A DNA stretch of 64,000 nt, taken from an uncultured virus (IMG/VR IMGVR_UViG_3300037067_004081). Taxonomy: Duplodnaviria; Heunggongvirae; Uroviricota; Caudoviricetes. Positions 1,038 through 43,028 of the stretch are shown piece after piece. Below the pieces are notes generated by a model. The model made no database searches and was not told where the DNA came from. It was given only the letters and a program-made list of their open reading frames with translations. The stretch lies in IMG/VR virus record IMGVR_UViG_3300037067_004081; one strand, 5' to 3'. Numbering within the stretch: position 1 is the stretch's first letter; each line of letters opens with the position of its first letter. A program made the translations under genes and the position numbers.

Positions 1038-1080
1038 AAACAAGGTGCCCTGTAGTGTGTGGGTGCCTTGTTTAGTTTTT
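1038..1080 (+). terminator. Intrinsic terminator
   Basis: AAACAAGGTGCCC / GGGTGCCTTGTTT stem followed by a T-run. Confidence 0.7.
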
Positions 1081-1096
1081 GGAGAAAGGAATTGAC

Positions 1097-2062
1097 ATGT
1101 ACATTCTTGGGGCAGGATTGGCTGGGTGTATTGCTGGCATTCTGAATGGTGATGCGGTGATCCTAGAGAAGGCCAAATCAGCAGATGAAATCCCAGCCCA
1201 CAAAGCGCTGCTCAGATTCAGATCTGACAAGATTGCCCGAATAGCAGGAGTGGAATTTGACAAGGTGGTTGTCAGGAAGTCCATATGGTATGATGGCAAG
1301 GAGTATCGCCAGCCAACAATCCGATTTGCCAACATGTATTCAAGAAAGGTAAGCAATGGATATTTTGAGCGCTCCATCCTGAATCTGAATGATGCAGAGC
1401 GCTGGATTGCTCCAGACAACTTCCATGAGATACTGCTGCAACGATGCAAGCATCAGATCCAATATGGCAGTCAGGTTTCTTATATAAATGAGAACAAGAT
1501 AACAGTTGATGGCTCTGGACTCATGTATCTGGACCGAGCAGGAAGCGCAGTCATCAGCACTCTTCCTCTTCCATTCGTTTGCAAGCTGCTAGGCATCGAA
1601 ACAGAGCTGAAGTTTGAGCAAAAGCCTATCTGTGTCAGGCGATTCAGATTGGCCAACTGCAATCTATATCAAACCATATATTATCCTGCACCAGACTTCT
1701 CTGTGTATCGAGCATCCATCATAAGGGACAACCTGATCATTGAATATTTTGAAGACAGAAGTGATGCTGGTGAGATTGATATTATATTTAATAATTTTGG
1801 TATCAATCCAGCGGATATAATATCAACAGCAGGAAGGGTATCAAAGCAGCAAGGGAAGATATCCCCAGTTGATGACAGGATGCGAAAGGAATTGATTTTC
1901 AAAATGTCCGTTGAAAGAGGTGTCTACAGCCTGGGCAGATTCGGAGTTTGGCGCAACATCCTTCTTGATGATGTTTATGAAGATGTTCTGCAGATTCGCC
2001 GCATGATTGGAAAAACAGATTATGATAACAAACTTGCCTCTATGAAAGGAGACTCACAGTGA
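1097..2062 (+). CDS. FAD-dependent oxidoreductase (UDP-galactopyranose-mutase/HemY-like fold)
   Basis: YILGAGLAG...ILEK Rossmann motif; C-terminal SLGRFGVWR FAD motif; ATG 1097 after AAGGA. Confidence 0.8.
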   Translation: MYILGAGLAGCIAGILNGDAVILEKAKSADEIPAHKALLRFRSDKIARIAGVEFDKVVVRKSIWYDGKEYRQPTIRFANMYSRKVSNGYFERSILNLNDAERWIAPDNFHEILLQRCKHQIQYGSQVSYINENKITVDGSGLMYLDRAGSAVISTLPLPFVCKLLGIETELKFEQKPICVRRFRLANCNLYQTIYYPAPDFSVYRASIIRDNLIIEYFEDRSDAGEIDIIFNNFGINPADIISTAGRVSKQQGKISPVDDRMRKELIFKMSVERGVYSLGRFGVWRNILLDDVYEDVLQIRRMIGKTDYDNKLASMKGDSQ

Positions 2063-2907
2063 AGATAGTTGAACCAACAGTTGAAATAATAAACGCAACA
2101 CCGAATGCTCTGGAGCTGATGTTGCTCACCAAGTCCACCAGATTGAAAGGTGGAGCAGGATTGGCAGAGATCACCAGCTGGCCGATGGGAAAGAAGCTTT
2201 CTGAATTGGCCTACATGAAGGACACCATCAAGTCTTCATGGGAGTTTGTTGACTATGTGTTCCTGATCACAGGAGTCAGCAGGGTGTTCACTCATCAGTT
2301 TGTCCGCACTCGAACAATGGCTGGGGTTGATGATCCTGCCTTTGGTGCTCCAGAAGGGAATGCAGCAGTGGCCAGCTTTGCTCAGGAAGCCCAGAGAACC
2401 ATTGATGCATCTGACAACGGCTTCTCTATTCCGAATGGGGCCAAGCTGGCCCCAGTCTATGAGAATGCATATTTCATTGCCAATGAAGAATACAAGGCTG
2501 CGTTGGCCTCTGGTGAGAATTATCAGGATGCCAGGTCAATCCTTCCGAATGCCATCACCACCTCCATCATGGCCAAGATCAGTCTGCGGGTGCTCAGTGA
2601 TATGGCCAATGTTCGGCTGTGCACCAGAGCACAAGGAGAATATCAGAAGGTATTCAGAATGATGCGGCAGGCAGTATATCAGCTGCATCCCTGGACAGAA
2701 GGATGGATTGATGTATATTGCGTCAACCATGGCAGCTGCTGTTTCCCGCGATATGCCAAGTGCCCTATTCAGGCGCACACCTTCAATCCTGAAACCGGAG
2801 TTGCCTGTGATGGCCGATTGCCATACAACCGGAATGAACTGCGCAAATTCTGGGAGAAGACCATACATGAAGCCAATCCTGTGGCCAAAGATGGGAGGAC
2901 ACAATAA
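2059..2907 (+). CDS. thyX: Flavin-dependent thymidylate synthase (ThyX)-like protein, divergent active site
   Basis: WEFVDYVFLITGVSRVFTHQFVRTR, DARSILP, RLCTRAQGE; signature altered to RTR-x20-SFAQEAQR. Confidence 0.85.
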   Translation: MKIVEPTVEIINATPNALELMLLTKSTRLKGGAGLAEITSWPMGKKLSELAYMKDTIKSSWEFVDYVFLITGVSRVFTHQFVRTRTMAGVDDPAFGAPEGNAAVASFAQEAQRTIDASDNGFSIPNGAKLAPVYENAYFIANEEYKAALASGENYQDARSILPNAITTSIMAKISLRVLSDMANVRLCTRAQGEYQKVFRMMRQAVYQLHPWTEGWIDVYCVNHGSCCFPRYAKCPIQAHTFNPETGVACDGRLPYNRNELRKFWEKTIHEANPVAKDGRTQ

Positions 2908-3515
2908 TGCCAGGCAAGGATGGGAAGTTTGTTGCTTGCATTGACTTTGATGGGGTGATAAGCCAGTACCATTCTTGGAAAGGTGTTGATGAATTTGAAG
3001 AGCCTGTTGCTGGAGTGGCACAGGCTCTTTCCCTTTTGAAGAGTCTTGGCTGGATTATCATCATAAATACTTCGCGGGTTGAATCGGCGCTGCTGAGAAT
3101 GTATTTGGAAGAGAATGACATCCCATTTGATCACATCAATGAACCTCACCCTGGGTGGCAGGATAATCCTTGCAATAATGGTAAGCCACCGGCTGATGTA
3201 TATATTGATGACAAAGCGCACAGATTCAATGGCAGCTGGGCAGACACGCTGCGTTGGATTCTTCTGTCTGATATCAGGAGATGGGAGAAAAAGAAAGGCA
3301 ATCACATCCAGCATCCCAGCCACTATAATAAGGGTGGGATTGAAGTTGTTGAAGCAATTGAGGCGTGGGAGTTGGGCTGGAACCTGTCCAATGTTGTCAA
3401 GTATGTAGTAAGGGCAAGACACAAAGGACAACGGGTTGTTGACCTGAAGAAAGCTGCAGAGTACCTGCGCCGTGAAATAGTTGCAGCAGAAATCGAAAAG
3501 GAGTTGAAAGACTGA
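2907..3515 (+). CDS. HAD-family phosphatase fused to DUF3310 (T7 gp1.7-like nucleotide kinase) domain
   Basis: DFDGVI and KPPADVYIDDKA HAD motifs; HPSHYNKGGIE...NVVKYVVRARHKG...DLKKA DUF3310 pattern. Confidence 0.8.
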   Translation: MPGKDGKFVACIDFDGVISQYHSWKGVDEFEEPVAGVAQALSLLKSLGWIIIINTSRVESALLRMYLEENDIPFDHINEPHPGWQDNPCNNGKPPADVYIDDKAHRFNGSWADTLRWILLSDIRRWEKKKGNHIQHPSHYNKGGIEVVEAIEAWELGWNLSNVVKYVVRARHKGQRVVDLKKAAEYLRREIVAAEIEKELKD

Positions 3516-4276
3516 TGAGAAGGCTTTGGATAATAACAGGAGCGACGGCTGGGCTTGGTCAGCAGATATTGGCCTACATACCTGTTGAGGATATTGTCTT
3601 GAGAATTGGCAAAACCCCAATAGAGAACAGGCCTGTGGAGCGGCAGCAGATAGTTGAACTGCAAGCGGATCTTGGATTGCCCAGTCTTGTTGATGTCAAA
3701 CTTCAGCAGGCTTTTGATGAACTGTTGTGTACCAACATTGAAGTCAAACCGGCTGTGCTTATCAACTGTGCGGCAGAGAATCTAATTACACCAACCAGAT
3801 TTATTGAGGCTGATGACTTCGAAAGGATATTGAATGTCAATGTGGTTTCTCCTGCATTGATTGCTCGAACAATCCTGCATCGAGTCTGGAGGCCAGACAG
3901 TCTGGATCAATTTGTTGTTGTCAATATTGGATCCAATGCAGCAAAGGGTGCAGGTGCACATAGTCTGGCGTATGTGGCCAGCAAGCATGCACTCACTGGT
4001 GTTACAAGATCACTGGCCAGAGATTATGCTGGGCAGGCTATAATATTTCAGGTGAACTTTGGTAAGCTCGAAGGCACCAGGATGACCAATTATATTGATC
4101 AGCAGCAGGCAAAGCTAAAGGGAACATCTGTTGCTGAAGAGAGGTTGAGGCAGTCAAAGAGTTGGGCAGGTGGCATAGAGATATCGCTTGATGCAGCTGC
4201 CAACTTTGTTATGAATCTTATCTCTGATCCAGGAATCAGACAATTCAATGGAGGTATTTTTGACTATGGTTGCTGA
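3515..4276 (+). CDS. Short-chain dehydrogenase/reductase (SDR)
   Basis: ITGATAGLG, INCAA, NIGS, YVASK. Confidence 0.85.
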   Translation: MRRLWIITGATAGLGQQILAYIPVEDIVLRIGKTPIENRPVERQQIVELQADLGLPSLVDVKLQQAFDELLCTNIEVKPAVLINCAAENLITPTRFIEADDFERILNVNVVSPALIARTILHRVWRPDSLDQFVVVNIGSNAAKGAGAHSLAYVASKHALTGVTRSLARDYAGQAIIFQVNFGKLEGTRMTNYIDQQQAKLKGTSVAEERLRQSKSWAGGIEISLDAAANFVMNLISDPGIRQFNGGIFDYGC

Positions 4277-5075
4277 AAAAATAAAGATCCTTATTCTATT
4301 TGGCGGAGCAAGGCCAAACTCCATCGGCGCTGCAATCGCAAGGGCATTTGTCGATACAGACAAGTGGGCAGTTCACCTATTCGACAAGCCTGAAGTTGTC
4401 AAGGCTGAAAGCTGGGTGAATGATTATCCTGCAATAGTTATGCACAAATGCGATCTGCTGCGTGTTACAGATATCTTTGATGCCATCCAGTTGGTGGAAT
4501 CTTATGCCAATGATGATCATGAATTGGCAGGAATGATATATGCTGCAGGATTCAACCGGATCAATGCGGTGGTGGATTACCAACTTGATGATTTCGAAAA
4601 GACCATGCACCTGAATGTTACAGCTCCATTCCTCTGTATGCAGGCTGTGGTGAGACGTTTCACCAAAACAACTCCATCAGGAAAGCCATTCATCTATACC
4701 ATTCTGGGATCACAGACGGCATACATTGCCAAGACTCGCACAGCACCGTATGGAGCCAGCAAGGCAGCAGTCAACCACCTTGCAGCCTGTATGCACCGTG
4801 AACTGGCACCGGCTGGGTATCGGGTGAATGTCCTCAACTTTGGTCCTGTGCTTGATACTGACATGGATGTTATCACCCAGGATGAGCTGAAGCGGCAACG
4901 CGGTTGGGGCAAGGATGAATACCTGCATGAGTTGACAAAGAACATTCCTATCAAGCGCTTCACCAAGCCTGAAGAGATTGCCACACTGGCATTGTTCCTT
5001 CAGGAGCATCCTGAAGTTGGTGAGTTGTTTGGTGGTCGTGGTCTTAATTTTGACGGAGGTCAACTCCAAGGATAG
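4266..5075 (+). CDS. Second SDR oxidoreductase
   Basis: GGARPNSIG, YAAG, YGASK, RVNVLNFGPVLDT, PEEIA...FDGG; ATG 4266 after GGAGG. Confidence 0.85.
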   Translation: MVAEKIKILILFGGARPNSIGAAIARAFVDTDKWAVHLFDKPEVVKAESWVNDYPAIVMHKCDLLRVTDIFDAIQLVESYANDDHELAGMIYAAGFNRINAVVDYQLDDFEKTMHLNVTAPFLCMQAVVRRFTKTTPSGKPFIYTILGSQTAYIAKTRTAPYGASKAAVNHLAACMHRELAPAGYRVNVLNFGPVLDTDMDVITQDELKRQRGWGKDEYLHELTKNIPIKRFTKPEEIATLALFLQEHPEVGELFGGRGLNFDGGQLQG

Positions 5076-5080
5076 GAAGT

Positions 5081-5617
5081 TTGATGTTGTTTATATATGC
5101 CTTGATTGATCCAAGAGATAAATCAGTCAAATATATTGGTGTATCTAAGGATGTCAGGAGAAGATACAAAGAGCACTTGGCAGACTTTAGATACACCAAG
5201 AAGGCTGCTTGGATAAGAAAGATGAAAAGACTTGGTTTGGTCATAAAAGTGAAGTTGATTGAAATATGTACCAATAAAAATTGGAAATCAAGGGAGAGAT
5301 ATTGGATAAAATATTATAGCAATAATAAACTTGTCAACCTTACAAAAGGTGGAGAAGGAATATTTGGATATAGGCACTCTCAAAAAACAAAGGATAGAAT
5401 AGGAAAGGCTTCTCTTGGCGTAAAGAGAAGTGATGAGACTAAAGAGAAGCTGAGAGTTGCTGCTTTGAATAGCTGGTCAGATGATAGTTTCAGAGCAAGG
5501 CAAATTCAGAAGCTTATTGGTAACAAAAGAGGCAAGGGAAGAAAAGGAATCAAACACACAGAGGAATCGAAACAAAAGATGAGAGATTCAATAGCAAGGA
5601 GAAATAAATGCCACTAG
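5081..5617 (+). CDS. Free-standing GIY-YIG homing endonuclease with NUMOD3-like repeats
   Basis: IYALIDPRD...YIGVS...RRYKEH, ERYWI, NLTKGGEG, HTEESKQKM; AT-rich relative to neighbours. Confidence 0.85.
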   Translation: MMLFIYALIDPRDKSVKYIGVSKDVRRRYKEHLADFRYTKKAAWIRKMKRLGLVIKVKLIEICTNKNWKSRERYWIKYYSNNKLVNLTKGGEGIFGYRHSQKTKDRIGKASLGVKRSDETKEKLRVAALNSWSDDSFRARQIQKLIGNKRGKGRKGIKHTEESKQKMRDSIARRNKCH

Positions 5618-8600
5618 ATTTTGTTCATCTCCATTGTCATTCGCAATTTTCTATATTGGATGGCATTTGTAAAGTAACTGCCTTAGTTGCCAAGGCAAAA
5701 GAATTCGGAATGAAGGCTCTTGCTATCACTGATCACGGCAATGTTGATGGGGCAGTCAAATTCTATAAGGAATGCAAGAAGGCAGGCATCAAGCCTTTGG
5801 TTGGCTCTGAACTATATTGGGTGGATGAATTCGAAAAAAGCAAAGACATGAAGAGGTATCATGTGCTGGTGTTGGCCAAGAACTTCAATGGCCTGCGCAG
5901 CATAATGAAAGCCTTGACTGTTGCTCACCAGCAACAATTCTATTATCGGCCACTAGTAACATTTGATCAGGTGCTGGGCCTTGAGGATGTAGTTGTGATG
6001 ACTGCCTGTGCTTCTGGAGTCTTGGCCCATCCAGAATTTGAAGCAAAAGCAAAGAGCCTATACAGGAGATTTGGCAAGAACTTCTTTTTTGAGACCCAGC
6101 CTTGGCTGAAATTTCCTCCACAGGCTCTGGTGTATCAGAGAGCAATCCAGCTGATGAAAAAATCTGGTATTCCAATCATCGCCACCAATGATGTTCACTA
6201 TCTCAATAAGGATGAATACCTGGCCCATGAGGTGGCATTGGCAATCGGAACACACAAGCTGATGTCTGATAAGGACAGATACAAATTTGATGTGAGAGGA
6301 CTGCACCTGAGAACGGCTGCAGAGATGTATGAGACACTGATTGCAGAAGGTGCTGAAAAGAAGCTTGCCGGAATGATGGTGAATTCAAGTCTGATGGTTG
6401 CTGATAGAATTGACTTCACTATGGACAAGGTTGAAGTTGATCTGCCAATTCCTCATAGATTCAGATCCAATAAACCAAATACAAAGATCCTAGAAGACTT
6501 GGCCTGGGCAGGAATGCAGAAGAGAGGATTGACCAAAAAGAAGGAATATGTTGACCGGCTGAAACACGAATTGAATGAAGTCATCACTCTTGGTTTTGCA
6601 ACATATTTCCTTATATTGGCTGATGTCATCTGGTGGTGCAGGGAGAATGATCTGATGGTGGGCCCAGGAAGAGGGTCAGTTGGCGGCAGCATTCTGGCAT
6701 ATTGCCTATTCATCACAGAGGTTGATCCACTCCAGTATGGCCTATCATTTGAGCGCTTCATAAGTCCAGGCCGAATTGATTTGCCTGATATAGATGTTGA
6801 CTTCCAAGATGACAGAAGGGAAGAAATTGTCAGCTATTTCAGAGGCCAATATGGTGATGAGAATGTTCTGCAGGTAAGAACCTTCAATGAAATGCACGGA
6901 AGACAAGCATTGCGTGATGTGGCCAGAGTGTTCAGTGTTCCTGTTGAGGAAGTAGGGAAAGCAGCAAAGGCGATTGTCAAGCGCAGTGGTGGTGATGCTC
7001 GTGAGGATTATTCTATTGAGGATGCATTCACATTGTTTGAAGAGTGCAAGGCTTTTGCCAAGAAGTATCCAAAGGTGGTAAAGGTTGCCCAATCCCTAGA
7101 AGGGATTACAAGGCAGGGTGGTATCCATGCTGCTGGTGTTGTGATATCTGACAAGCCTCTGTATGATGGCCAGCGCTGTGTAGTGATCAGTGCCAAGGAT
7201 GGAGTGCAGTCAATCAACTGGGACAAAAAGGACTTGGATGACTTTGGCCTGATGAAGCTGGATGTGCTTGGCCTTTCCACCTTGACTGTTCTGCACAGGG
7301 CAAAGGAGTTGATAGAGAAGCATCATGGCAATACCAAGATTGTATTCGAGAATATCAACTTGGCTGATAAGAAAGTGATATTTGAATTCAACAGAGGCAA
7401 CACCATTGGTGTGTTCCAATTTGGCACCCCAGGTTTGGGGTCATATTGCAGAGAGATTGGGGTCAAATGCTTTGATGATCTTGTTGACATCAATGCACTG
7501 TGGAGGCCAGGGACACTCAAATCAGGTATGACAGCTGAGTTCAAAGAAATCAAGAATGGCAGAAAGGGTGTCACCCCAGTATCGGAATATTATGACAACA
7601 TCACCAAGGCAACCCTGGGCATCATGCTCTATCAGGAGCAGATCATGCAGGTGTTATATCAGGGTGCTGGTATTGGGTGGAGAACAGTTGACACAATTCG
7701 CAAGGCGATATCCAAGAGCGAAGGCAATGAGAAAATTGCCGGATTCAAAAAGGAGTTCACAGAAGGGTGTGCCAAGCTGGGCACCATGGCAGAGGATGAG
7801 GCTGCAGCAGTATTTGACAAGATGGTGTTCTTTGGTTCATATGGCTTCAACAAATCCCACGCTGTGGCATATACCAAAATTGGATTCTGGACTATGTGGC
7901 TGAAGGTCTATTATCCAACAGAGTTCTATTGCTCACTGATAAACTTTGCCACCCAGGATAAGCGGATGGAATATGTTGATGATGCTCGAAAGAATGGTAT
8001 CACAGTATTGCTGCCTGATGTAAACAAGTCAGGAAAGATCTGGACCATGGAAGGCCCAGGAGTAATCAGAGCAGGATTGTCAAGCATAACATCCATATCA
8101 GAAAGATCAGCAGAAGAAATCCTGAAGAGCAGATTGAAGCATTCTGACAGAATATTCCAAGACTTTGATTCATTCCTGAAGCAGGTGCCAAGGCGCACCA
8201 TCAATAAGAGAGTCATCCAGAATCTTGGCAAGAGTGGAGCATTGCGCAGTCTGGGCATCGGTGTTCTCTGCAGTCAGGATATTGATGCTGTGCTGAAAGG
8301 CAATTATGAGTTGGATGCTGATGAGAGCAACCCTGAGATTCTGCACATAGTTGGTGATGTAGTTGATTTCAGTCCATCAAGTGATCCGCTGTATAAGATA
8401 TCTGCCATTGTAGACAGGATCAAAAAGAAGATCCCATTGAATACCTTGAAGCAGGTAGCAGACAGAGAGGTGACAGGCGAATGCACCTTTGTCGGTAAGA
8501 TTGACAAGATCAAATTTTCATATCGGGATAAGGTATCAAAGGGAAGCAATGATCTTGGTGGAGCATATGGCAACTTCTATGATGGTAGTGACCATATGAT

Positions 8601-9387
8601 GATAACCTTTGACAACAGAGCCACCAATAGCGTTGATAACATAGATGTCAAAAAGAAGATTGAGACAGCAGAGGAATGTTGGGTGTTGATTCATGCAACA
8701 GTTGCACCGGATAAGAGAAGTGGCACCGATGTAAAGCTGTTGGTGCGCAAGATTGTGTTCCTAGAGGAACTGATTGGAGAGGTCAACTTGGCATTCTTTC
8801 CTGCAGCCAAAATAGGCTTCACATATAAAGGAGAAGGACAGCCATTTGATGATGAGGTGCTGGATTGTCATGAATGTACCTTGAGAGATACCTGTACAGC
8901 TCCAGTCAGGCCCAACAGAGGCAGGTTTGATGTCATGGTTGTAGCTGAAGCCCCAGGCAGAGAAGAAGATGAGCAGGGCATTGGACTCCTGGGGAAAGCA
9001 GGAAAGAATCTTTGGGATGAATTGGCCAAGTATCAGATCAAAAGAAACCTGCTGCACGTGAACAATGTGGTGAAGTGCCGACCACCAAACAACAAAATAC
9101 CTAACATCAACATGGCTCACAAATGTGCTTCTCTCTGGTTGGACAGAGAGATGGAGCAAATCAAACCACTGATTGTGTTGGCTGCTGGTGGTACAGCTGC
9201 TGACTATTTTATCAAGGATGCCAAGATCACAGAATTGAATGGCAAGGTTATTTGGAATGCCAAGCATTCGTGCTGGGTGGTATATTGTCTGCATCCGGCA
9301 AGCATTATATATGAGCAGTCAAACAAAGAAGCATTCTCGAAAGCTATTGGGACATTTGCAAACCTGATGTACTGCATCTATAAATAA
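5608..9387 (+). CDS. dnaE: DNA polymerase III alpha (DnaE-like) with C-terminal family-4-like uracil-DNA glycosylase domain
   Basis: PHP HLHCHS/TDHG; GRGS; PDIDVDF; KLDVLGL; YGFNKSH; C-terminus CHEC...AEAPG..EED...NVVKCRPP...LHPA. Confidence 0.93.
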   Translation: MPLDFVHLHCHSQFSILDGICKVTALVAKAKEFGMKALAITDHGNVDGAVKFYKECKKAGIKPLVGSELYWVDEFEKSKDMKRYHVLVLAKNFNGLRSIMKALTVAHQQQFYYRPLVTFDQVLGLEDVVVMTACASGVLAHPEFEAKAKSLYRRFGKNFFFETQPWLKFPPQALVYQRAIQLMKKSGIPIIATNDVHYLNKDEYLAHEVALAIGTHKLMSDKDRYKFDVRGLHLRTAAEMYETLIAEGAEKKLAGMMVNSSLMVADRIDFTMDKVEVDLPIPHRFRSNKPNTKILEDLAWAGMQKRGLTKKKEYVDRLKHELNEVITLGFATYFLILADVIWWCRENDLMVGPGRGSVGGSILAYCLFITEVDPLQYGLSFERFISPGRIDLPDIDVDFQDDRREEIVSYFRGQYGDENVLQVRTFNEMHGRQALRDVARVFSVPVEEVGKAAKAIVKRSGGDAREDYSIEDAFTLFEECKAFAKKYPKVVKVAQSLEGITRQGGIHAAGVVISDKPLYDGQRCVVISAKDGVQSINWDKKDLDDFGLMKLDVLGLSTLTVLHRAKELIEKHHGNTKIVFENINLADKKVIFEFNRGNTIGVFQFGTPGLGSYCREIGVKCFDDLVDINALWRPGTLKSGMTAEFKEIKNGRKGVTPVSEYYDNITKATLGIMLYQEQIMQVLYQGAGIGWRTVDTIRKAISKSEGNEKIAGFKKEFTEGCAKLGTMAEDEAAAVFDKMVFFGSYGFNKSHAVAYTKIGFWTMWLKVYYPTEFYCSLINFATQDKRMEYVDDARKNGITVLLPDVNKSGKIWTMEGPGVIRAGLSSITSISERSAEEILKSRLKHSDRIFQDFDSFLKQVPRRTINKRVIQNLGKSGALRSLGIGVLCSQDIDAVLKGNYELDADESNPEILHIVGDVVDFSPSSDPLYKISAIVDRIKKKIPLNTLKQVADREVTGECTFVGKIDKIKFSYRDKVSKGSNDLGGAYGNFYDGSDHMMITFDNRATNSVDNIDVKKKIETAEECWVLIHATVAPDKRSGTDVKLLVRKIVFLEELIGEVNLAFFPAAKIGFTYKGEGQPFDDEVLDCHECTLRDTCTAPVRPNRGRFDVMVVAEAPGREEDEQGIGLLGKAGKNLWDELAKYQIKRNLLHVNNVVKCRPPNNKIPNINMAHKCASLWLDREMEQIKPLIVLAAGGTAADYFIKDAKITELNGKVIWNAKHSCWVVYCLHPASIIYEQSNKEAFSKAIGTFANLMYCIYK

Positions 9388-9666: not shown

Positions 9667-10245
9667 ATGGAGGTGAATTGTATGGCAGGAATCCCACCGC
9701 GTCCCAATCAAAACAAAGGGGCAGCAGGTCAAACCAATAATCCATATATGGGTGTCACCATAGATGGAAATCAGATCCATGATGCCTTGATCATCACCCC
9801 AGACATCAGCACAGAGATGAGCAAGCAAGCGGCACTGTTCAGTCGTTATGCGATTGCTGCTGTATGGGCAAGAGACAAGATGGAAAGGCAAAAGACTGCG
9901 CTTTCAATCTTGGAAGCTGATCTGGATGCGGATGCCAGACTCACCTTGACCAACCGCGGTGACAAGGTTCGGGAAGCTTCTGTTGAGGCTATCATCCACC
10001 AGGATGAGAAGTGGCAAGCTGCCAACGAAAAGATTCTTGAGGCGAAAAGAGAGTTGGGCATATTGGAAGCAGCTGCTGGTGCATTCCAGCAACGTGCTAT
10101 GATGTTGTCTGGCCTTGGCGCAATCAAGCGGCAGGAAATGGAGCAGGAACTGAGCAGCTTTACAAAGAACCAGGCAGGGAAAGCTACACAAGCTGTTCAG
10201 AATAACTTCGCCAAAAATGCTCCCAAGCCTGGTGGAGGTTTCTAG
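9667..10245 (+). CDS. UvsY-like recombination mediator (coiled coil)
   Basis: Helical protein with EASVEAII...AFQQRAMML pattern; upstream of SSB-like and RecA genes. Confidence 0.55.
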   Translation: MEVNCMAGIPPRPNQNKGAAGQTNNPYMGVTIDGNQIHDALIITPDISTEMSKQAALFSRYAIAAVWARDKMERQKTALSILEADLDADARLTLTNRGDKVREASVEAIIHQDEKWQAANEKILEAKRELGILEAAAGAFQQRAMMLSGLGAIKRQEMEQELSSFTKNQAGKATQAVQNNFAKNAPKPGGGF

Positions 10246-36221: not shown

Positions 36222-36420
36222 TCAATCTTGATAGCTTCAATGCAGACAAAGGCCAACCATATGCCAATTGGGAGAAGGTGGGCCAAGAGGCAATCTGTTT
36301 TTGCTGTAGCAGTCCAATCAAAATCAGTGTATCTGCTCTGCCAACAACGATGGGTGAAGAGTTCACCTATGAATGCTGGTGTGGGCAGGTGCACCAATTC
36401 AAAAGAGAGGATGTTTCATA

Positions 36421-36750
36421 ATGGAGTTGAATGAATACCAACATCGAGCAAGAGCAACCGCTGTGTATCCCAGAATTGGTCAAAATCTTCAGTATCCTGT
36501 GCTTGGCCTTGCAGGTGAGGCTGGTGAAATATGCAATAAGGTAAAGAAGATTGAAAGGGATTGTGGAGGGAAGATCACCCCAGAGATAAGAGAGAAGATT
36601 CTCAAGGAAGTTGGTGACACACTCTGGTATGTTTCCATGATCTGCCAGGAATTGGCAGCGAATCTGGATGATGTTGCACGCGACAACCTTATGAAGCTGC
36701 TGGACAGGCAATCACGCGGTGTGCTGAAGGGTTCAGGTGATGAGAGATGA
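36421..36750 (+). CDS. MazG-like nucleotide pyrophosphohydrolase
   Basis: LGLAGEAGE...KEVGDTLWY...NLMKLLDR. Confidence 0.9.
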   Translation: MELNEYQHRARATAVYPRIGQNLQYPVLGLAGEAGEICNKVKKIERDCGGKITPEIREKILKEVGDTLWYVSMICQELAANLDDVARDNLMKLLDRQSRGVLKGSGDER

Positions 36751-37373
36751 GTGAAACGGTATCCGTCATCATTGCGACATTTGGAGACAGAAAGAACTGG
36801 GACAGGATTGTACAGAGGGCAATCAATTCTGTCATCACTCAATCAGTCAGACCCAACCAATTGATCAGAAGCCACGGCAAGGATTTGCAGCAGGCCAGGA
36901 ATGAGGCTGTCAAGAAGTCATATTCAGACTGGCTTTGCTTCCTTGATGCTGATGATGAGCTTGAACCTGGCTACATAGAAGCGATGTTGAAAGGCCAAGG
37001 TGATTTGAGATACCCTATGGTGAGGTATCTTGATGTTGAGCAATTCAACATTGATCACCGGCTGACTGATCCGGTTGCGCTCAAAGAGATTCACATATTG
37101 GATGGCAACTGGATGGTCATTGGGACATTTGTCAGGCGTGAACAATTCCTGCGTGTCGGTGGCTTCCCAGACTATTCAGCATATGAGGATTGGGCGCTGT
37201 GGATCAAGTGTTGGATTGATGGTGCCCAATGGCAACTTTGTAATGACGCCATCTATCGAGTATACAGGAGCAAATCCGGCAGGAATCATATGCCTGGGAA
37301 TGTTGCCCAGAAGCTTCATGATGACATCTCAGGATACTTCAGGCCTATTGCCAAAGAAAGAGGATTGATATGA
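36747..37373 (+). CDS. Family 2 glycosyltransferase
   Basis: VSVIIATF, ARN, CFLDADD, GGF...EDWALW. Confidence 0.9.
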   Translation: MSETVSVIIATFGDRKNWDRIVQRAINSVITQSVRPNQLIRSHGKDLQQARNEAVKKSYSDWLCFLDADDELEPGYIEAMLKGQGDLRYPMVRYLDVEQFNIDHRLTDPVALKEIHILDGNWMVIGTFVRREQFLRVGGFPDYSAYEDWALWIKCWIDGAQWQLCNDAIYRVYRSKSGRNHMPGNVAQKLHDDISGYFRPIAKERGLI

Positions 37374-38182
37374 AAGACATGGTTGTTGGTGCAGCATCTG
37401 GGTATGACTGGGCCAAGATTTCATCATGGGCAAACAGTCTTGATCAATGCGGCTTCACCGGACACAAGGTGATCCTCTATTATGGGTGGGATCAGGATTT
37501 CATTCGGCGTGCAACAAAGAGAGGTTATCAGGTTGTTGGCTGCTCTCAAAGGGAAAAGACTGTTCATGTTGACAGATTCTTGAAATTGGCGCTGCATCTT
37601 TCAACCCACAATGTTGTTGTCAATAGAGTGATGATCACTGACACCCGTGACATCATATTTCAAGGCAATCCATCAGACTGGCTTGATGAGAACCTCACCG
37701 GCGCTCAACAGCTCTGTGCAGTCACAGAGGGAATCAGATATCAGGATGAGCCTTGGGGTTCAGGAAATGTATTGGCAGGCTTTGGGCCCATATGGCTCAA
37801 GCAGCTTGCTGATAAGGTGATTGTCAATGCAGGCTGCATCTGCGGATATCAGGCGGACATGGACAGGTTGTTTTGGGCCTTGGTTCAGTTGGCATCCAGT
37901 GCAGCTATTCCTTTGGCTGATCAGTCAGCGCTGAATGTTTTGCTGGCAGATCCTGAATGGGCCCAGCGCATTAGGATATTTGAACCTGATGCTGGACTCT
38001 GTGCAAACCTTGGCACGCTGGCTGTTGATGAATTCAAGCCAAAGCTGGTGAGCCCACAGCCTACATGGGATGACAAAGGTGTTGTGTTTACATCTGAAGG
38101 CAAACCATTTATACTGGTTCATCAATATGACAGAATACCAGGCTTGAAAGAAAAGATCTGGAACAAATACTGGGAGGCATAA
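37370..38182 (+). CDS. GT-A fold glycosyltransferase-like protein
   Basis: MITDTRDIIFQGNP, NAG, DQSALN, VHQYDR. Confidence 0.75.
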   Translation: MKDMVVGAASGYDWAKISSWANSLDQCGFTGHKVILYYGWDQDFIRRATKRGYQVVGCSQREKTVHVDRFLKLALHLSTHNVVVNRVMITDTRDIIFQGNPSDWLDENLTGAQQLCAVTEGIRYQDEPWGSGNVLAGFGPIWLKQLADKVIVNAGCICGYQADMDRLFWALVQLASSAAIPLADQSALNVLLADPEWAQRIRIFEPDAGLCANLGTLAVDEFKPKLVSPQPTWDDKGVVFTSEGKPFILVHQYDRIPGLKEKIWNKYWEA

Positions 38183-38889
38183 TGATCAGAACAGGATTGA
38201 CAACAGACAAATCAAGAGTCTGCTTGCTATTGATCACGGATGGCAGGGCAGAGTGTATCGAGAAGACATTATTGTCATGGGCAGAGCAGCTTGATGGGGC
38301 ATTCACAGACTTCATTGTGGTGAATGACTCTGGTGATATGGAGTATGCCTGCTGGCTTGATCGCAAGCTGCCATACTTCACAAGGATACATCATCCAAGG
38401 CGATTAGGATTTGGTGAAACAATAAGAGATGCATGGGCCAACATTCCTGGTCACTGTGATTTCATCTTCCACCTTGAGGATGACTTCCTGCTCAATCGCT
38501 CATTCAAGCTGGATGACTGGATTGCTGTTCTGAAGGCCAACCCAGATGTCATATCCATCACAGCATATCGGCAACCGTGGTCACAGGCTGAAATATTTGC
38601 TGGTGGTTTCATCCCTATGCGCCCAGGCTGCTATCAAGACAAGAAATATGTTGGGGATAATGATGTCGAGTATGATGTCATCGAGCATACAAACAACTTC
38701 TCAACAAATCCCTGTCTATATCCAAGTTGGTTGACCAATATCGACTGGCCTGAAAGTCCAGAGAGTGAAGGCAAGTTTGGTTTTGTTTTGAAAGAGTTGA
38801 ACCCCAATTCGAAATACCTGCTCTGGGGTAAGACAACAGATGAACCGTTGGTGCACCACTTTGGTGCAAGAAAGGGCACAGGCTATTAG
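38182..38889 (+). CDS. Family 2-like glycosyltransferase
   Basis: IVVNDS, FIFHLEDDF, FSTNPCLY, VHHFG. Confidence 0.8.
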   Translation: MIRTGLTTDKSRVCLLLITDGRAECIEKTLLSWAEQLDGAFTDFIVVNDSGDMEYACWLDRKLPYFTRIHHPRRLGFGETIRDAWANIPGHCDFIFHLEDDFLLNRSFKLDDWIAVLKANPDVISITAYRQPWSQAEIFAGGFIPMRPGCYQDKKYVGDNDVEYDVIEHTNNFSTNPCLYPSWLTNIDWPESPESEGKFGFVLKELNPNSKYLLWGKTTDEPLVHHFGARKGTGY

Positions 38890-38890
38890 C

Positions 38891-39541
38891 ATGATGATTG
38901 TTGTGGTCACTTCCCGCAGACCATTGATGTGGGGGAATGTTCTTGATAATATCAACCGGCAATCAAGAAAGCCTGATGCTCTCATATTTGTCGCACACAG
39001 AACAAATGTTGTACCAAGACTGATGCTGTCAACTTGCATCGGCAATGGTATCCCCAGCACATTCTTCAGAGCCAATGATTCCTTGAGTTATACCTTTGCA
39101 GCCGAACAAGGGTTTAATGAGGCTGCAAAGCTGGACTCAGAAGGGATGATGTGCAACTTTGATGATGATGACTTCTATGGCAAGGATTATTTGAAAGAAA
39201 TAGAAGATTTGCACAAGGTGTTTCCAAGTGCAGGCATCATCGGGAAAGCTGGATACTTCATGTGGCAATTTGGCAAGAAGGTTGAACCAACCAGAGAAGG
39301 ATACAAAGATATTGAGCCCATGTCAATAGTTGATTGGGTTGCTGGACCAACAATCTCAATCAATATCAAGACTTGGATTGAGAGGCCTGATTTCAGGCAT
39401 GATCATCTCAAGCCATATGCTGATGCCGCCATCATCAGTGTGGCAAATACTTTTAGAATTCCAATCAGGACAACAGGTGATCAGAACTTCCTGCTGCAGC
39501 GCTATTCAAATAAGGAGCATAAGCACACATGGCCAATGTAA
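38891..39541 (+). CDS. Family 2-like glycosyltransferase
   Basis: TSRRP...RQ, CNFDDDDFYGKDYL, GPTI. Confidence 0.7.
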   Translation: MMIVVVTSRRPLMWGNVLDNINRQSRKPDALIFVAHRTNVVPRLMLSTCIGNGIPSTFFRANDSLSYTFAAEQGFNEAAKLDSEGMMCNFDDDDFYGKDYLKEIEDLHKVFPSAGIIGKAGYFMWQFGKKVEPTREGYKDIEPMSIVDWVAGPTISINIKTWIERPDFRHDHLKPYADAAIISVANTFRIPIRTTGDQNFLLQRYSNKEHKHTWPM

Positions 39542-40392
39542 AACAGGTTTGGGCTGTTGGCCTTGTTCTGAATGAGGCTGACATTATTGAGTACACGCTC
39601 AAGAATTTTGAGGCCCAGGGTGTCAATGGGATCATTGTGCAGGATAATGGTTCAACAGATGATACCATCAAGAAGCTTGAGCACTTTCAAAACACAACAG
39701 GTATCAAGGCCACTCTGATATTAGAAGGAAAGAACACCGGATATTTTCAGAGCAGGAACATGACTGCACTGGCTCACTTCGCAGCATCGCTTGGGGCAGA
39801 ATACATCATCCCATTCGATGCTGATGAGCTGTGGTATGCTCCTGGTCATGAACGGCTGGCTGATCTGATAAGAGAAGCGGATGCAGGCTGTATTCATGCT
39901 GAGCAATACTTCTATTATTCAACCAGAGAAGATATTCAGCATGAAATGAACCCATACAAAAGGATTGTATGGCGCACCAAGGAAGTCAGGCCATGGAAGA
40001 AAGTCTGCTTCAAATGGTTTCCTGGTGCTCACATTGGTGGTGGCAATCACTCGCTGCAGGATGCTGATGGCAATGAGGTGTCAAGAGGAAGATACATTGA
40101 CATCAAGATTGGCCATTTCCCATGCAGGAGTTTTGAGCAGATGCTGGACAAGGTTGTCAGGCATGGAAGGTCTATGGACCTGCAACACCCAGATGATCCC
40201 ACATGGGGCGGTGATGGGCCAGCTCACAACTATCTATATCGCAAGTTTGTCAATGAAGGTGCAGCAGCTCTGAAGCAGATCTGGGAATGGGGTGACAAAC
40301 AAACAGACTATTCAGGATTCTGCCTATCCAGAAATTACAAATCATTAGGGCTGGTGAATTCTCCAGCTCCATATAAAGAGGTGACAAGATGA
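39529..40392 (+). CDS. Glycosyltransferase (GT2_4-like), paralog A
   Basis: NEADII, DNGSTDDT, IPFDADELW, GNH, HFPCRS. Confidence 0.85.
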   Translation: MANVKQVWAVGLVLNEADIIEYTLKNFEAQGVNGIIVQDNGSTDDTIKKLEHFQNTTGIKATLILEGKNTGYFQSRNMTALAHFAASLGAEYIIPFDADELWYAPGHERLADLIREADAGCIHAEQYFYYSTREDIQHEMNPYKRIVWRTKEVRPWKKVCFKWFPGAHIGGGNHSLQDADGNEVSRGRYIDIKIGHFPCRSFEQMLDKVVRHGRSMDLQHPDDPTWGGDGPAHNYLYRKFVNEGAAALKQIWEWGDKQTDYSGFCLSRNYKSLGLVNSPAPYKEVTR

Positions 40393-40997
40393 GCAAGGTT
40401 GTCTATCTTCTCTGTGATCCAAGGGACAATAGACCCAGATATGTTGGAGTGACAGACAACCTAAAGGAAAGATTCTACAATCACCTTAAAGACAAGGCTA
40501 GAAACCACAGAACAAATTGGATTAAATCTTTATCGAGATTGAATTTGGTTCCTTTTGCTGTCACTCTTGAAAGCGACTGCAAAGGTGACTGGAGGAATTC
40601 AGAGAAGTATTGGATCAGATTGTTTATTGATCTTGGGGCCAATCTTGTTAATGCAACAGAAGGCGGTGATGGTTGTGAAGGATATCATCACAAGAGATCG
40701 GTCAAGCAGTCATTTAGCAAAAGGATGATGGGGAACAAAATTGGTATTGGGAATAAGAACACCCTTGGAAGGAAGCTTTCTGGTGATCATAAAGCAAAAG
40801 TTTCAGCTTCTCTAATAGGGAATCATCGAACACTTGGCAAGAAGCTTCCTCCATTCACCACAGAACACAAATCCAAAATTAGTTTGGGGCAGATGGGTAA
40901 CAAAAGAGCACTAGGTTATGTCAAGTCTGAAGAATCTAAGAATAAGATAAGAGCTGCAAGGCTCAAATATTGGGCAGAAAGAAGGGTAAATGAGTAA
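40389..40997 (+). CDS. Second free-standing GIY-YIG homing endonuclease
   Basis: VYLLCDPRD...YVGVT...RFYNH, EKYWI, NATEGGDG, NUMOD3-like repeats. Confidence 0.85.
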   Translation: MSKVVYLLCDPRDNRPRYVGVTDNLKERFYNHLKDKARNHRTNWIKSLSRLNLVPFAVTLESDCKGDWRNSEKYWIRLFIDLGANLVNATEGGDGCEGYHHKRSVKQSFSKRMMGNKIGIGNKNTLGRKLSGDHKAKVSASLIGNHRTLGKKLPPFTTEHKSKISLGQMGNKRALGYVKSEESKNKIRAARLKYWAERRVNE

Positions 40998-41550
40998 TTT
41001 GAATAGATGGAACTATATCTATGCTGGTGCAAAAAAATCAGCAGATTTTATCAGAACATACGGTAATGATGATGTTACATACAAGAAAGGCTATGAATGG
41101 CTGCAACATTGCAACACCATAGAAGATTGGGGTTGTGGATTTGCATTTTTTTCAAAGCTCTGCAAGCCAAAGCAATACAGAGGGATTGATGGCAGCAATA
41201 CTCCATTTGCTGATGAGCAGGTTGATTTTGCTGTCTACAAATCCAACAAGTATCCTGGCATCTTCATGCGGCATGTCATCGAGCACAATGAAGATTGGGC
41301 TGTGGTCTTGCGCAATGCTCTTGAGAGCTTCCAATACCGAATGTGTCTGGTGTTGTTCACGCCATGGGCTGAAAAGACCTATGATTATGAGCCACCTGAA
41401 AGAGGCTCTGAACATCGTTGCTTCTTTTTCAACCGGCAGGATATACTTGATGTGATCACCAGCATCCCTGGCATCAGTTGGCAGTCTGAAGAGAACATTC
41501 AGACGTGCACCCAATTTGGCGTGGAACATGTTTTCTATTTGGAGAAATAA
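40990..41550 (+). CDS. Class I SAM-dependent methyltransferase
   Basis: IEDWGCG motif I, YRGID, RHVIEH. Confidence 0.75.
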   Translation: MSNLNRWNYIYAGAKKSADFIRTYGNDDVTYKKGYEWLQHCNTIEDWGCGFAFFSKLCKPKQYRGIDGSNTPFADEQVDFAVYKSNKYPGIFMRHVIEHNEDWAVVLRNALESFQYRMCLVLFTPWAEKTYDYEPPERGSEHRCFFFNRQDILDVITSIPGISWQSEENIQTCTQFGVEHVFYLEK

Positions 41551-42372
41551 ATGAACAATGAACTTTGGGGTGTCACAATGGTAGCTGATGAAGAAGATAT
41601 CATGGGCTACAATCTGAGCCATATGTTTGAGCAGGGTGTCGAAAAGATAATTGTTGCAAACAATCTATCAACTGATAACACTGCCAAGGTGCTCGATGAT
41701 ATGGCTTGGAGATATCCAGGCAGGCTGATTGTGCAGCAGGATGATGATCCTGCCCACTATCAAAGCAGGAAGATAACTGCAATGGCTGAATTTGCCTACA
41801 AGCACGGCGCAAGATTCATCATACCATTTGATGCTGATGAGCTGTGGTATGCATTTGATGGCGAGACATTGCATGATGCCATCTGCAGGCACCCCAAGGT
41901 TCAATGTATTGGTGTTCCGATGTGGAATCATTTCTGCACCAGTAAGGATGATGACACAGCCGTCAATCCTTTCAAGAGAATGTTGTGGCGCACAAAAGAA
42001 AGGAATGCTCTGGACAAGATTGCTGTCAGATTCAAGCCTGGGATGATCATTGATGAAGGCAATCACATGGTGAGAGGGATTGATGGCAGATTCTTATCAG
42101 GCGCTGCTGTTGGGTTGGGCATTCGGCACTTCCCATACAGAAGTGCAGAGCATTTTATAAGGAAGGCTGAAAGAGGGGGCAAAGCGCTTGAGCTTGCGAA
42201 GGGTATTCCAGAAACTGTTGGGTTGCATTGGAGGCAATACAGGCAGTCAATCATTGAACACGGCGCTGAGGCTGTCAAGGAGCACTACAAGAGGTGGTTC
42301 ACCGCTGCTGACCCAGAGGCGGAAACCTCAGAGGTGATGTATGACCCAGCTCCATACAAAGGACTGATATGA
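41551..42372 (+). CDS. Glycosyltransferase (GT2_4-like), paralog B
   Basis: DEEDI, NNLSTDNT, IPFDADELW, GNH, HFPYRS. Confidence 0.85.
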   Translation: MNNELWGVTMVADEEDIMGYNLSHMFEQGVEKIIVANNLSTDNTAKVLDDMAWRYPGRLIVQQDDDPAHYQSRKITAMAEFAYKHGARFIIPFDADELWYAFDGETLHDAICRHPKVQCIGVPMWNHFCTSKDDDTAVNPFKRMLWRTKERNALDKIAVRFKPGMIIDEGNHMVRGIDGRFLSGAAVGLGIRHFPYRSAEHFIRKAERGGKALELAKGIPETVGLHWRQYRQSIIEHGAEAVKEHYKRWFTAADPEAETSEVMYDPAPYKGLI

Positions 42373-43028
42373 TGAGCAAATACATGGTGGTTATTCCAAA
42401 CAGATACCCTGATGTGATCGCACCTCTGGTGGATTCAATCAAGAGATGGACAGCAAAACCCTATCCAGTTGTTGTCATAGCCAATGGGCATCAGAATGGG
42501 TATGGGTTTTGGAGGATGGACTATCCACCAATCAACTTTGTTTATGCCAAGGCAGTCAACTATGGCATCAGGCACTATGTAGACAAGGATGTAATCCTGC
42601 TGAATGATGATTGTGTTCTGCTGGAGATGGATTTCTTTGATCAACTTTCTTACTTTGCACATCTTGATCCAAAAGTTGGTATCCTGTCACCTCTTATTAA
42701 AGGTGGTGTTGGAAACAAGTTCCAATATTGGTATGACAGAAACAAACTCTGGTTGCCTGGGCAAGGGTTCAAGGAGATTATAGGAATTGATCCTGTTTGT
42801 TTTCCGTGCGTATATATAAAGAGGCGGATGATCAGTGAGATTGGAGTGCTATCAGAAACAATCCCTGGCTATGGTGGTGAGGATAATGAATATTGCATCA
42901 GAGCCAGGGAACATGGATGGAAAACTGCAGTAACAAGCTACCTGACGGTGCAGCACGGCGATGGTGGACCAGAGTTGGATGACGGATGGGGCAAAACCTG
43001 GTCCAAAAGCTTCGCACGCAATAAATAA
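42369..43028 (+). CDS. Family 2 glycosyltransferase
   Basis: VVIPN, AVNYG, LLNDD, GYGGEDNEYCIRA. Confidence 0.85.
   Translation: MMSKYMVVIPNRYPDVIAPLVDSIKRWTAKPYPVVVIANGHQNGYGFWRMDYPPINFVYAKAVNYGIRHYVDKDVILLNDDCVLLEMDFFDQLSYFAHLDPKVGILSPLIKGGVGNKFQYWYDRNKLWLPGQGFKEIIGIDPVCFPCVYIKRRMISEIGVLSETIPGYGGEDNEYCIRAREHGWKTAVTSYLTVQHGDGGPELDDGWGKTWSKSFARNK

Follow-up and report, generated by a model that had tools for sequence, protein, structure and literature searches.

A DNA polymerase gene of an uncultured virus of the Caudoviricetes (IMG/VR record IMGVR_UViG_3300037067_004081) was found to end in a uracil-DNA glycosylase (UDG) domain. The gene lies in a stretch of 64,000 nucleotides, referred to here as the window. 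It encodes a C-family, DnaE-type enzyme in which a predicted iron–sulfur UDG of the family-4 type sits where DnaE1 has its tau-binding C-terminal domain (CTD), with the OB fold retained. By analogy with UDG-bearing A-family phage polymerases, the tail is proposed, with moderate confidence, to be a working uracil glycosylase tethered in cis to the replicase and acting at the fork. The proposal builds on the domain architecture, the predicted fold, the conservation of key residues, the wide distribution of the fusion and the coupling of two positions in the base-binding pocket.

The open reading frame (ORF) has zero internal stops across its 1259 amino acids (aa), and an AAGGAG Shine–Dalgarno sequence lies 8 nt 5′ of the ATG at 5608. 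The continuous DnaE–UDG frame described in a first-pass annotation, made from the sequence alone, was thus borne out. A database version of the protein, P0002 (1243 aa), is shorter by 16 residues and would lack residues 1-16 with the PHP motif HLHCH (window 5608-5655). The Shine–Dalgarno sequence of the ATG at 5608 is strong, and HLHCH is conserved in relatives. In PHROGs the 1259-aa protein matches phrog_405, 'DNA polymerase' (E 2.3e-296), and five Pfam domains were found in the ORF (PHP, DNA_pol3_alpha, fingers, HHH_6 and UDG). The full domain order is PHP–Pol3–fingers–HhH–OB–linker–UDG. DNA_pol3_alpha covers residues 294-555 and the fingers 558-723, and PF02811, PF07733 and PF17657 all score far over their Pfam cut-offs. 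Residues D394, D396, D398 and D552 are invariant in all eight aligned DnaE–UDG proteins. A PHP domain, a Pol3 core with its acidic residues, fingers, (HhH)2 and an OB fold identify the protein as a C-family polymerase of the DnaE type. It departs from DnaE1 after the OB fold, where the UDG follows in place of a tau-binding CTD and nothing lies beyond it. In E. coli, tau, a subunit of the clamp loader, binds to the CTD (PMC3919608).

The C-terminal part of the protein (residues 884-1259) was modeled with AlphaFold2 from 41 aligned sequences, giving a mean predicted local distance difference test score (pLDDT) of 82. The model consists of a five-stranded β domain, a disordered stretch and the UDG domain (pLDDT >90). 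The β domain was also modeled alone (pLDDT 84) and compared by VIA-align with 48,161 PDB representatives. Its top match was the OB fold of PolC (3f2b_A, Z 12.1, 98 residues aligned, root-mean-square deviation (rmsd) 3.0), followed by M. tuberculosis DnaE1 over its residues 991-1099 (7pu7_A; Z 11.9 with 107 residues aligned and an rmsd of 2.7). OB folds of RPA, Teb1 and AsnRS scored lower. No Pfam OB match was listed for residues ~957-1051 at E <= 0.01.

The tail itself was compared with solved glycosylases. PF03167 matched residues 1108-1247 (E 4.1e-18, 66 bits vs a cut-off of 24.3). The best solved relative in phmmer was T. thermophilus UDG (1ui0, E 2e-22, a match well outside chance expectation), followed by S. 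tokodaii 4zbx and T. maritima 1l9g, while UdgX was weaker (29 distinct PDB sequences at E <= 0.1). The UDG model superposed on 1ui0 with a VIA Z of 25.9 and an rmsd of 1.8, and 181 of the 192 residues of 1ui0 were aligned. Scores were lower for the family-5 enzyme 2d3y (Z 17.8), for the UDG domain of the phiLo PolA (9qhs_A, Z 15.4, 151 residues) and for MUG/TDG (about Z 14). Foldseek concurred, with 1ui1 matched at E 1.2e-13 and a TM score of 0.83. Judged by sequence and model, the domain belongs to family 4, as had been noted at first pass. The interval assigned to it then, 8860-9387, corresponds to the UDG part from L1085 (LDCHEC...) to the stop, and all of the strings quoted for it were located: CHEC, AEAPG, REED, GIGLLGKAG, NVVKCRPP, C1173 and LHPAS (9289-9303).

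Alignment with 1ui0 pairs E1114 with E41, REED with EEED, N1153 with N80 and H1229 with H155. Cysteines C1087, C1090, C1157 and C1173 align with the four cysteines of 1ui0 that ligate its [4Fe-4S] cluster, and cluster binding is predicted here too. Among 161 rows of DnaE-fused domains, the positions of C1087, C1090 and C1173 hold Cys in 137, 140 and 137 rows, respectively. Glu, Asn, His and the cysteines are also kept in a close clade, P0003-P0005, with 56-68% identity in the UDG domain. There are three departures from 1ui0: G40 is replaced by A1113, P53 by G1126 and F54 by L1127. Phe54 is the residue that stacks on uracil, so the aromatic stacking residue of family 4 is missing; both this loss and the altered motif A had been recognized at first pass.

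Family-4 motif A reads GE(A/G)PG and motif B HPS(S/A)(L/V)(L/V)R (Aroli et al. 2023, PMC10359453). In the window protein AEAPG (8944-8958; REED follows at 8959-8970) retains Glu, Pro and Gly, with Ala for the first Gly. Its motif B, HPASIIY, retains His and Pro with the hydrophobic pair Ile-Ile. It ends in Tyr in place of Arg, and this HPA..Y pattern is also that of the S. tokodaii chain. Roles of the Asn and His in uracil binding are described in the same article, where N91 of UdgX hydrogen-bonds uracil; N1153 aligns with this residue and would bind uracil likewise. The fold (Z 24-26), the four Cys, the motif-A Glu, the Asn and the motif-B His are thus common to the window domain and the UdgA enzymes of T. 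thermophilus, T. maritima and S. tokodaii. It differs from them in not being free-standing, in its initial Ala in motif A, and in Leu and Gly at the positions of Phe54 and Pro53 of 1ui0. Coordinates of all features are collected in Table 1.

Table 1. Features of the polymerase gene and of its surroundings, in window positions.
Feature	Position	Strand	Basis or remark
Whole gene, C-family (DnaE-type) DNA polymerase with C-terminal UDG, P0001	5608..9387	+	Single 1259-aa ORF
PHP domain, residues 7-163, N-terminal HLHCH motif included	5626..6096	+	PF02811, E 2.8e-36
Pol III alpha core and fingers, residues 294-723	6487..7776	+	PF07733, E 2.9e-79; PF17657, E 1.4e-40
PDIDVD in Pol III alpha core	6784-6801	+	Acidic residues
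Helix–hairpin–helix HHH_6, residues 797-883	7996..8256	+	PF14579, E 1.1e-17
OB fold, residues ~957-1051	8476..8760	+	AlphaFold2 models: five strands, pLDDT mostly 82-96
Flexible linker OB–UDG, residues 1057-1069	8776..8814	+	pLDDT <50 (model residues 174-186)
Family-4-type [4Fe-4S] UDG domain (predicted), residues ~1077-1259	8836..9384	+	PF03167, 1ui0, model pLDDT >90
CHEC, cluster cysteines 1-2 (C1087, C1090)	8866..8877	+	Aligns with C..C of 1ui0
Motif A variant AEAPG and REED (A1113, E1114, E1120)	8944..8970	+	Aligns with GEGPGEEED of 1ui0
GIGLLGKAG	8977..9003	+	Aligns with GRPFVGKAG of 1ui0
L1127, place of uracil-stacking Phe (1ui0 Phe54)	8986-8988	+	Alignment to 1ui0
NVVKCRPP: Asn1153 (uracil-binding, by alignment) and third cluster Cys1157	9064..9087	+	Aligns with NIVKCRPP of 1ui0
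Fourth cluster Cys, C1173	9124..9126	+	Aligns with fourth Cys of 1ui0
Motif B LHPASIIY (H1229)	9289..9312	+	Aligns with HPAYLLR of 1ui0, HPAAALY of 4zbx
Upstream module: phrog_4828 protein, ThyX-like, DUF3310 protein, two SDRs	1079-5075	+	
Free-standing GIY-YIG/NUMOD3 homing endonuclease	5081-5617	+	Overlaps polymerase start by 10 bases
Second free-standing GIY-YIG/NUMOD3 homing endonuclease	40389-40997	+	
192-aa ORF, one small ORF between it and the polymerase	9667-10245	+	phrog_1069, E 4e-23
MazG-like pyrophosphatase, at least five glycosyltransferase-like genes, weak methyltransferase match	36373-43028	+	Between MuF-like and scaffold/major capsid genes; methyltransferase match below Pfam cut-off

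The fusion recurs widely. A word-seeded search restricted to long proteins gave 797 candidates and 13 matches, six of them DnaE plus UDG by Pfam (one is the window's own protein, a 100%-identical cluster drawn from 2 contigs) and seven PolA–UDG. When the UDG domain was run by full phmmer through 1.84 billion representatives, 15,008 matches reached E <= 0.001, and 86 reached E <= 1e-30. Among the best 150 representatives, 100 also match DnaE residues 1-884, with the UDG C-terminal in 94 of the 100; most of the remaining 50 are short and possibly fragments. IMG/VR was scanned with an alignment of eight DnaE–UDG proteins, which gave 557 relatives, and 80 loci were kept. DnaE and a UDG-like domain share one ORF in 54 of these loci, and at two more the gene is split with the UDG on its last piece. 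The other loci have the UDG in a separate ORF (three), a complete DnaE without UDG (16) or a polymerase running off the contig (five). The architecture search proposed with the first-pass annotation came out in favor of the fusion.

An assembly or sequencing error that joined DnaE to a separate UDG gene has a negligible chance of being the explanation. A separate UDG ORF does occur at L040 and L042, where the polymerase gene is in pieces, and at L061, where it lies 9.5 kb downstream. Nevertheless, the identical protein was drawn from two contigs and was met again on a metagenome contig, 54 of the 80 IMG/VR loci have the single-ORF form, 94 of the best 150 representatives combine a C-terminal UDG with DnaE homology, and in GenBank records of Rhizobium phages one coding sequence spans the DnaE and UDG-like parts. 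Recurrence in so many independent assemblies rules the artefact out to the extent that sequence data allow. The ORF at L061 (22374-22829) encodes a separate family-4 UDG downstream of a tail-less DnaE, a possible in-trans arrangement.

Megablast of the polymerase gene against GenBank phages gave no match. A metagenome scan found the window's own phage contig and distant relatives only (<=35% identity), and a genome scan with P0003 found a single relative (38%). This DnaE–UDG (L137:10001-13645, 38% identical to P0003) is on an 84.6-kb contig of a metagenome-assembled genome labeled Candidatus Thorarchaeota, and the contig may be phage DNA binned with an archaeon.

The pocket substitutions were followed through the family. 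At the stacking position the 161 DnaE-fused rows have Phe in 99, Leu in 31 and other residues in 31, in an automatic alignment that misplaces at least L016, L019, L027 and L041. Glu/Asn/His and all four Cys are retained in 22 of the 31 Leu rows. In 168 rows with an intact triad, the residues at 1113 and 1127 are Gly,Phe in 132, Ala,Leu in 19, Gly,Leu in five, Cys,Leu in three, Met,Leu in one and Ala,Phe in none. Phe at 1127 is thus accompanied by Gly at 1113 in 132 of 132 rows, and 23 of the 28 Leu rows have Ala, Cys or Met there; kinship inflates these raw pair counts, some rows are near-duplicates, and Leu rows are over-represented because the phmmer sample was ranked by likeness to an Ala/Leu query. 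A separate search for shorter family-4 homologs gave 120 sequences, 118 with Gly,Phe, two with Ala,Leu and no mixed pair. Mutual information with column 1127 peaks at column 1113 (0.476, vs 0.223 for the next column).

Kinship was taken into account on a tree built with FastTree from 169 rows, 163 of them distinct, after removal of the trait columns. Fifteen changes between Phe and Leu are needed on this tree, and the Ala/Leu pair is scattered over it, arising several times in otherwise intact domains. In six independent pairs on well-supported branches, position 1113 shifts the same way in ~5.3 and the opposite way never, with a median sign-test p of 0.06 that is limited by the number of pairs. 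In these alignments the change from Gly/Phe to Ala/Leu is a recurrent, coupled swap. The two positions are proposed to form a steric pair: Gly would be required beside Phe, while Leu would permit a small side chain that fills the space. Gly with Leu looks like a viable intermediate, and Ala with Phe looks forbidden. The Ala/Leu pocket is accordingly proposed to be a tolerated, volume-compensating variant of Gly/Phe with no new specificity.

A different use of the pocket had been suggested at first pass, namely that the domain reads a modified T and so discriminates phage from host DNA. With Leu in place of the aromatic stacking residue, the Ala/Leu pocket might read or excise 5-hydroxymethyluracil, hypermodified T or thymine. 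The divergent ThyX-like protein, the DUF3310 protein, two SDRs, MazG and the glycosyltransferase block could form a DNA-modification pathway, and PolA–UDG fusions are tied to T-modified genomes (PMC13697223). Such altered specificity is improbable. The uracil-binding Asn1153 and His1229, the motif-A Glu and the acidic run REED are unchanged, strong covariation with Leu is seen in no pocket column besides 1113, and the Ala/Leu pair is sporadic on the tree, recurring in domains that are otherwise intact. Head genes surround the glycosyltransferases, whose target may instead be the virion. The UDG of the PolA system cuts deoxyuridine (dU) only and spares modified T (PMC13697223).

The predicted correlation with the upstream operon was examined by local phmmer of flanking proteins against all fetched loci, and it was not supported. 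A phrog_4828/ThyX/DUF3310(/SDR) module adjoins DnaE–UDG in about ten IMG/VR loci. It stands beside Gly/Leu pockets at L007 and L008 and beside canonical Gly/Phe pockets at L011, L014, L019, L027, L036 and L037, while L016 and L017 have DUF3310 plus an SDR. At L006, the sole other Ala/Leu locus with flanks, only a weak ThyX match was found, and for many intact fusions the 10-kb flanks contain nothing of this module. Because the module occurs beside Gly/Phe pockets and is missing around L006, the pocket variant does not track it; the fusion is also far wider spread than the module. A bolder scheme is likewise improbable. In it, Ala/Leu would be a distinct family-4 variant, repeatedly evolved on tethered UDGs, that acts either as a slow or non-excising uracil sensor pausing the C-family replicase or as a pocket widened to 5-substituted uracils. 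Together with the ThyX-like, MazG and glycosyltransferase block it would denote a genome with modified T, in which the replicase checks the identity of bases at the fork.

The fused domains split into two groups. Intact domains, with Glu, Asn, His and four Cys, were found in 29 of the 56 fused IMG/VR ORFs, and L016, L019 and L027, misaligned automatically, have the canonical motifs too. The window protein belongs to this group. Degenerate domains, with Asp for Glu and without the Asn, His and Cys, occur in Rhizobium phages and in about 20 of the 56 ORFs. The split mirrors that between active SPO1/SP15-like and inactive N4-like PolA fusions (PMC13697223).

The existence of the degenerate group gives weight to a second reading, in which the UDG is mainly a non-catalytic DNA-binding or processivity element, or a replisome docking surface in place of the tau-binding CTD, and glycosylase activity is incidental. 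This reading is rather unlikely for the window protein. Degenerate tails have been retained, N4-like PolA fusions are without the catalytic residues (PMC13697223), and a processivity role after the model of vaccinia D4 was proposed for the UDG-like domains of SPO1 and T5 (PMC3201878); loss of the stacking Phe would fit relaxed catalytic constraint. Against it, Glu, Asn, His, REED and four Cys are kept in the window protein and its clade, which a pure scaffold would not need, and the Gly/Phe to Ala/Leu change is compensated and not random. Catalytic and scaffold roles are in any case not exclusive.

A working glycosylase is also suggested by one insertion. The 1477-aa DnaE–UDG at L041 (9992-14422) has an intein-like insert within UDG motif A (GE...VFVHN-S...). 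Inteins usually sit at functionally critical sites, and the insert was for this reason counted in favor of catalysis.

Fusions of this kind have precedents. Timinskas et al. 2014 (PMC3919608) described DnaEX, an additional polymerase of certain Yersinia pestis and Salmonella enterica strains. It is a DnaE variant with an archaeal-type UDG (PF03167) in place of both OB and CTD. DnaEX and the window protein share the PHP–Pol3–(HhH)2 core, a C-terminal PF03167 domain and the lack of a tau-binding CTD. They differ in that DnaEX has neither OB nor CTD, while in the window protein the OB is kept and only the place of the CTD is taken. A tblastn search of plasmids with the C-terminal part of the window protein gave no Yersinia or Salmonella record among the best 25 of 199 matches. 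The novelty implied at first pass for DnaE plus UDG does not hold, since the architecture is already in print in its OB-less form; what is described here is an OB-retaining, catalytically intact-looking form with a compensated Ala/Leu pocket. In the literature searched, with most subscription journals outside the search, no account was found of an intact Fe–S UDG on DnaE, of an OB-retaining form or of an Ala/Leu pocket.

A functional parallel is the PolA–UDG of SP15-like phages (Missoury et al. 2026, PMC13697223). Both are phage replicative polymerases with a family-4-like UDG in cis and conserved catalytic residues, and the same job, replication-coupled uracil surveillance, is proposed for both. 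The PolA enzyme is of the A family with an N-terminal UDG, whereas the window enzyme is of the C family with a C-terminal one, and DnaE-fused UDGs are separate from PolA-fused ones on the FastTree (support 97). In that article, PolA–UDG with conserved residues is described as excising template dU before the active site reaches it, bypassing the abasic site and sparing a 5-substituted T analogue; PolA–UDG fusions are linked to T-modified genomes, and N4-like fusions are without catalytic residues. C-family polymerases are not mentioned in it, the terms 'C-family', 'DnaE' and 'Pol III' having zero occurrences. In poxviruses the B-family polymerase has the UDG D4/E4 as a holoenzyme subunit, which also places a UDG on a replicative polymerase beside the template (PMC13697223, PMC3201878). 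That UDG is of the family-1 type and is supplied in trans, in a eukaryotic virus. Kazlauskas & Venclovas 2011 (PMC3201878) noted divergent C-terminal regions in viral C-family polymerases and discussed a UDG as processivity factor for PolA only.

Among named phages, Rhizobium phages RHph_N1_10, B1VFA and RHEph10 have a DnaE with a C-terminal UDG-like tail, annotated only as DNA polymerase III alpha. The surroundings are similar, with a sigma factor upstream and a phrog_1069-like ORF and RecA downstream. These proteins, about 30% identical overall to the window protein, are without the OB region and the four Cys; motif A reads (T/A)DAP(N/G), and NPG or SPG stands in place of HPA.

Removal of U at the fork, also raised at first pass, remains the best-supported function of the window domain, by analogy with PolA–UDG (PMC13697223). 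The C-family replicase would be the phage's own, with the UDG on a short flexible linker behind the OB domain. The UDG would travel with the polymerase and cut uracil after flipping it from either the single-stranded template in front or the fresh duplex behind. Family-4 UDGs work on single- and double-stranded DNA (PMC5295032). In the predicted pocket, with Glu1114 in motif A, the base would be held by Asn1153 and His1229; Leu1127 would replace the usual Phe as the floor, and Ala1113 would take the space freed by Leu. The OB domain of DnaE lies near the incoming single-stranded template. We infer the enzymatic activity, the strand scanned and the fate of the abasic site. As a speculation, a restart that depends on recombination could draw on the neighboring genes for RecA, the nuclease and the Mre11/Rad50-like proteins.

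Several points weigh against a working glycosylase at the fork. An abasic site generally stops a polymerase of the Pol III type, so excision ahead of the polymerase could do harm unless coupled to restart. The 64-kb window plus 4.4 kb further upstream, of a genome of ~79.8 kb, yielded no apurinic/apyrimidinic endonuclease, PolX or ligase; the lack of a PolX or ligase partner in this part is a difference from the SP15-like PolA–UDG system. The stacking Phe is absent, and catalysis could be lowered or abolished. A UDG-like domain that is clearly dead persists in many relatives, and because of this retention the domain has value without catalysis. The alignment errors and the excess of Leu rows given with the pocket counts count on the same side.

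UDGs accompany replicative polymerases in two known settings: family A, in phage fusions shown biochemically, and family B, in poxviruses. The relatives assembled here form a large, uncharacterized set of phage C-family polymerases with an intact-looking Fe–S UDG in cis. If the proposed function is true, a UDG on the polymerase would be a recurrent solution over all three polymerase families. It also raises the question of how a Pol III-type enzyme handles abasic lesions made by its own tail. The coupled swap provides a testable structure–function handle on the family-4 pocket. The basic picture is unchanged, the architecture being already in print.

The surroundings are those of a phage. Nearly all window genes are on the + strand, and terminase, portal, MuF-like, major capsid, tail tube and tape measure genes are present. 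Downstream of the polymerase are a phrog_1069-type ORF, RecA, a PDDEXK nuclease and Mre11/Rad50-like genes. Homologs of the phrog_1069-type ORF (9667-10245) were found in 34 fetched loci, the Rhizobium phages included. It matched no PDB sequence and had no significant hit in Pfam, and its product is a candidate replisome accessory protein. The block at 36373-43028 could serve virion glycosylation or DNA hypermodification. The ThyX-like protein upstream of the polymerase matches PF02511 with 88 bits. It reads RTR...SFAQEAQR, and the canonical ThyX signature is RHR..S....S.R. A SNF2 helicase and a sigma factor lie farther upstream on the phage's metagenome contig.

The same phage was recovered as this 79,772-base metagenome contig (L083, L084). 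Both of its ends fall inside the polymerase gene and overlap at residues 794-833, which indicates that the genome is circular or terminally redundant.

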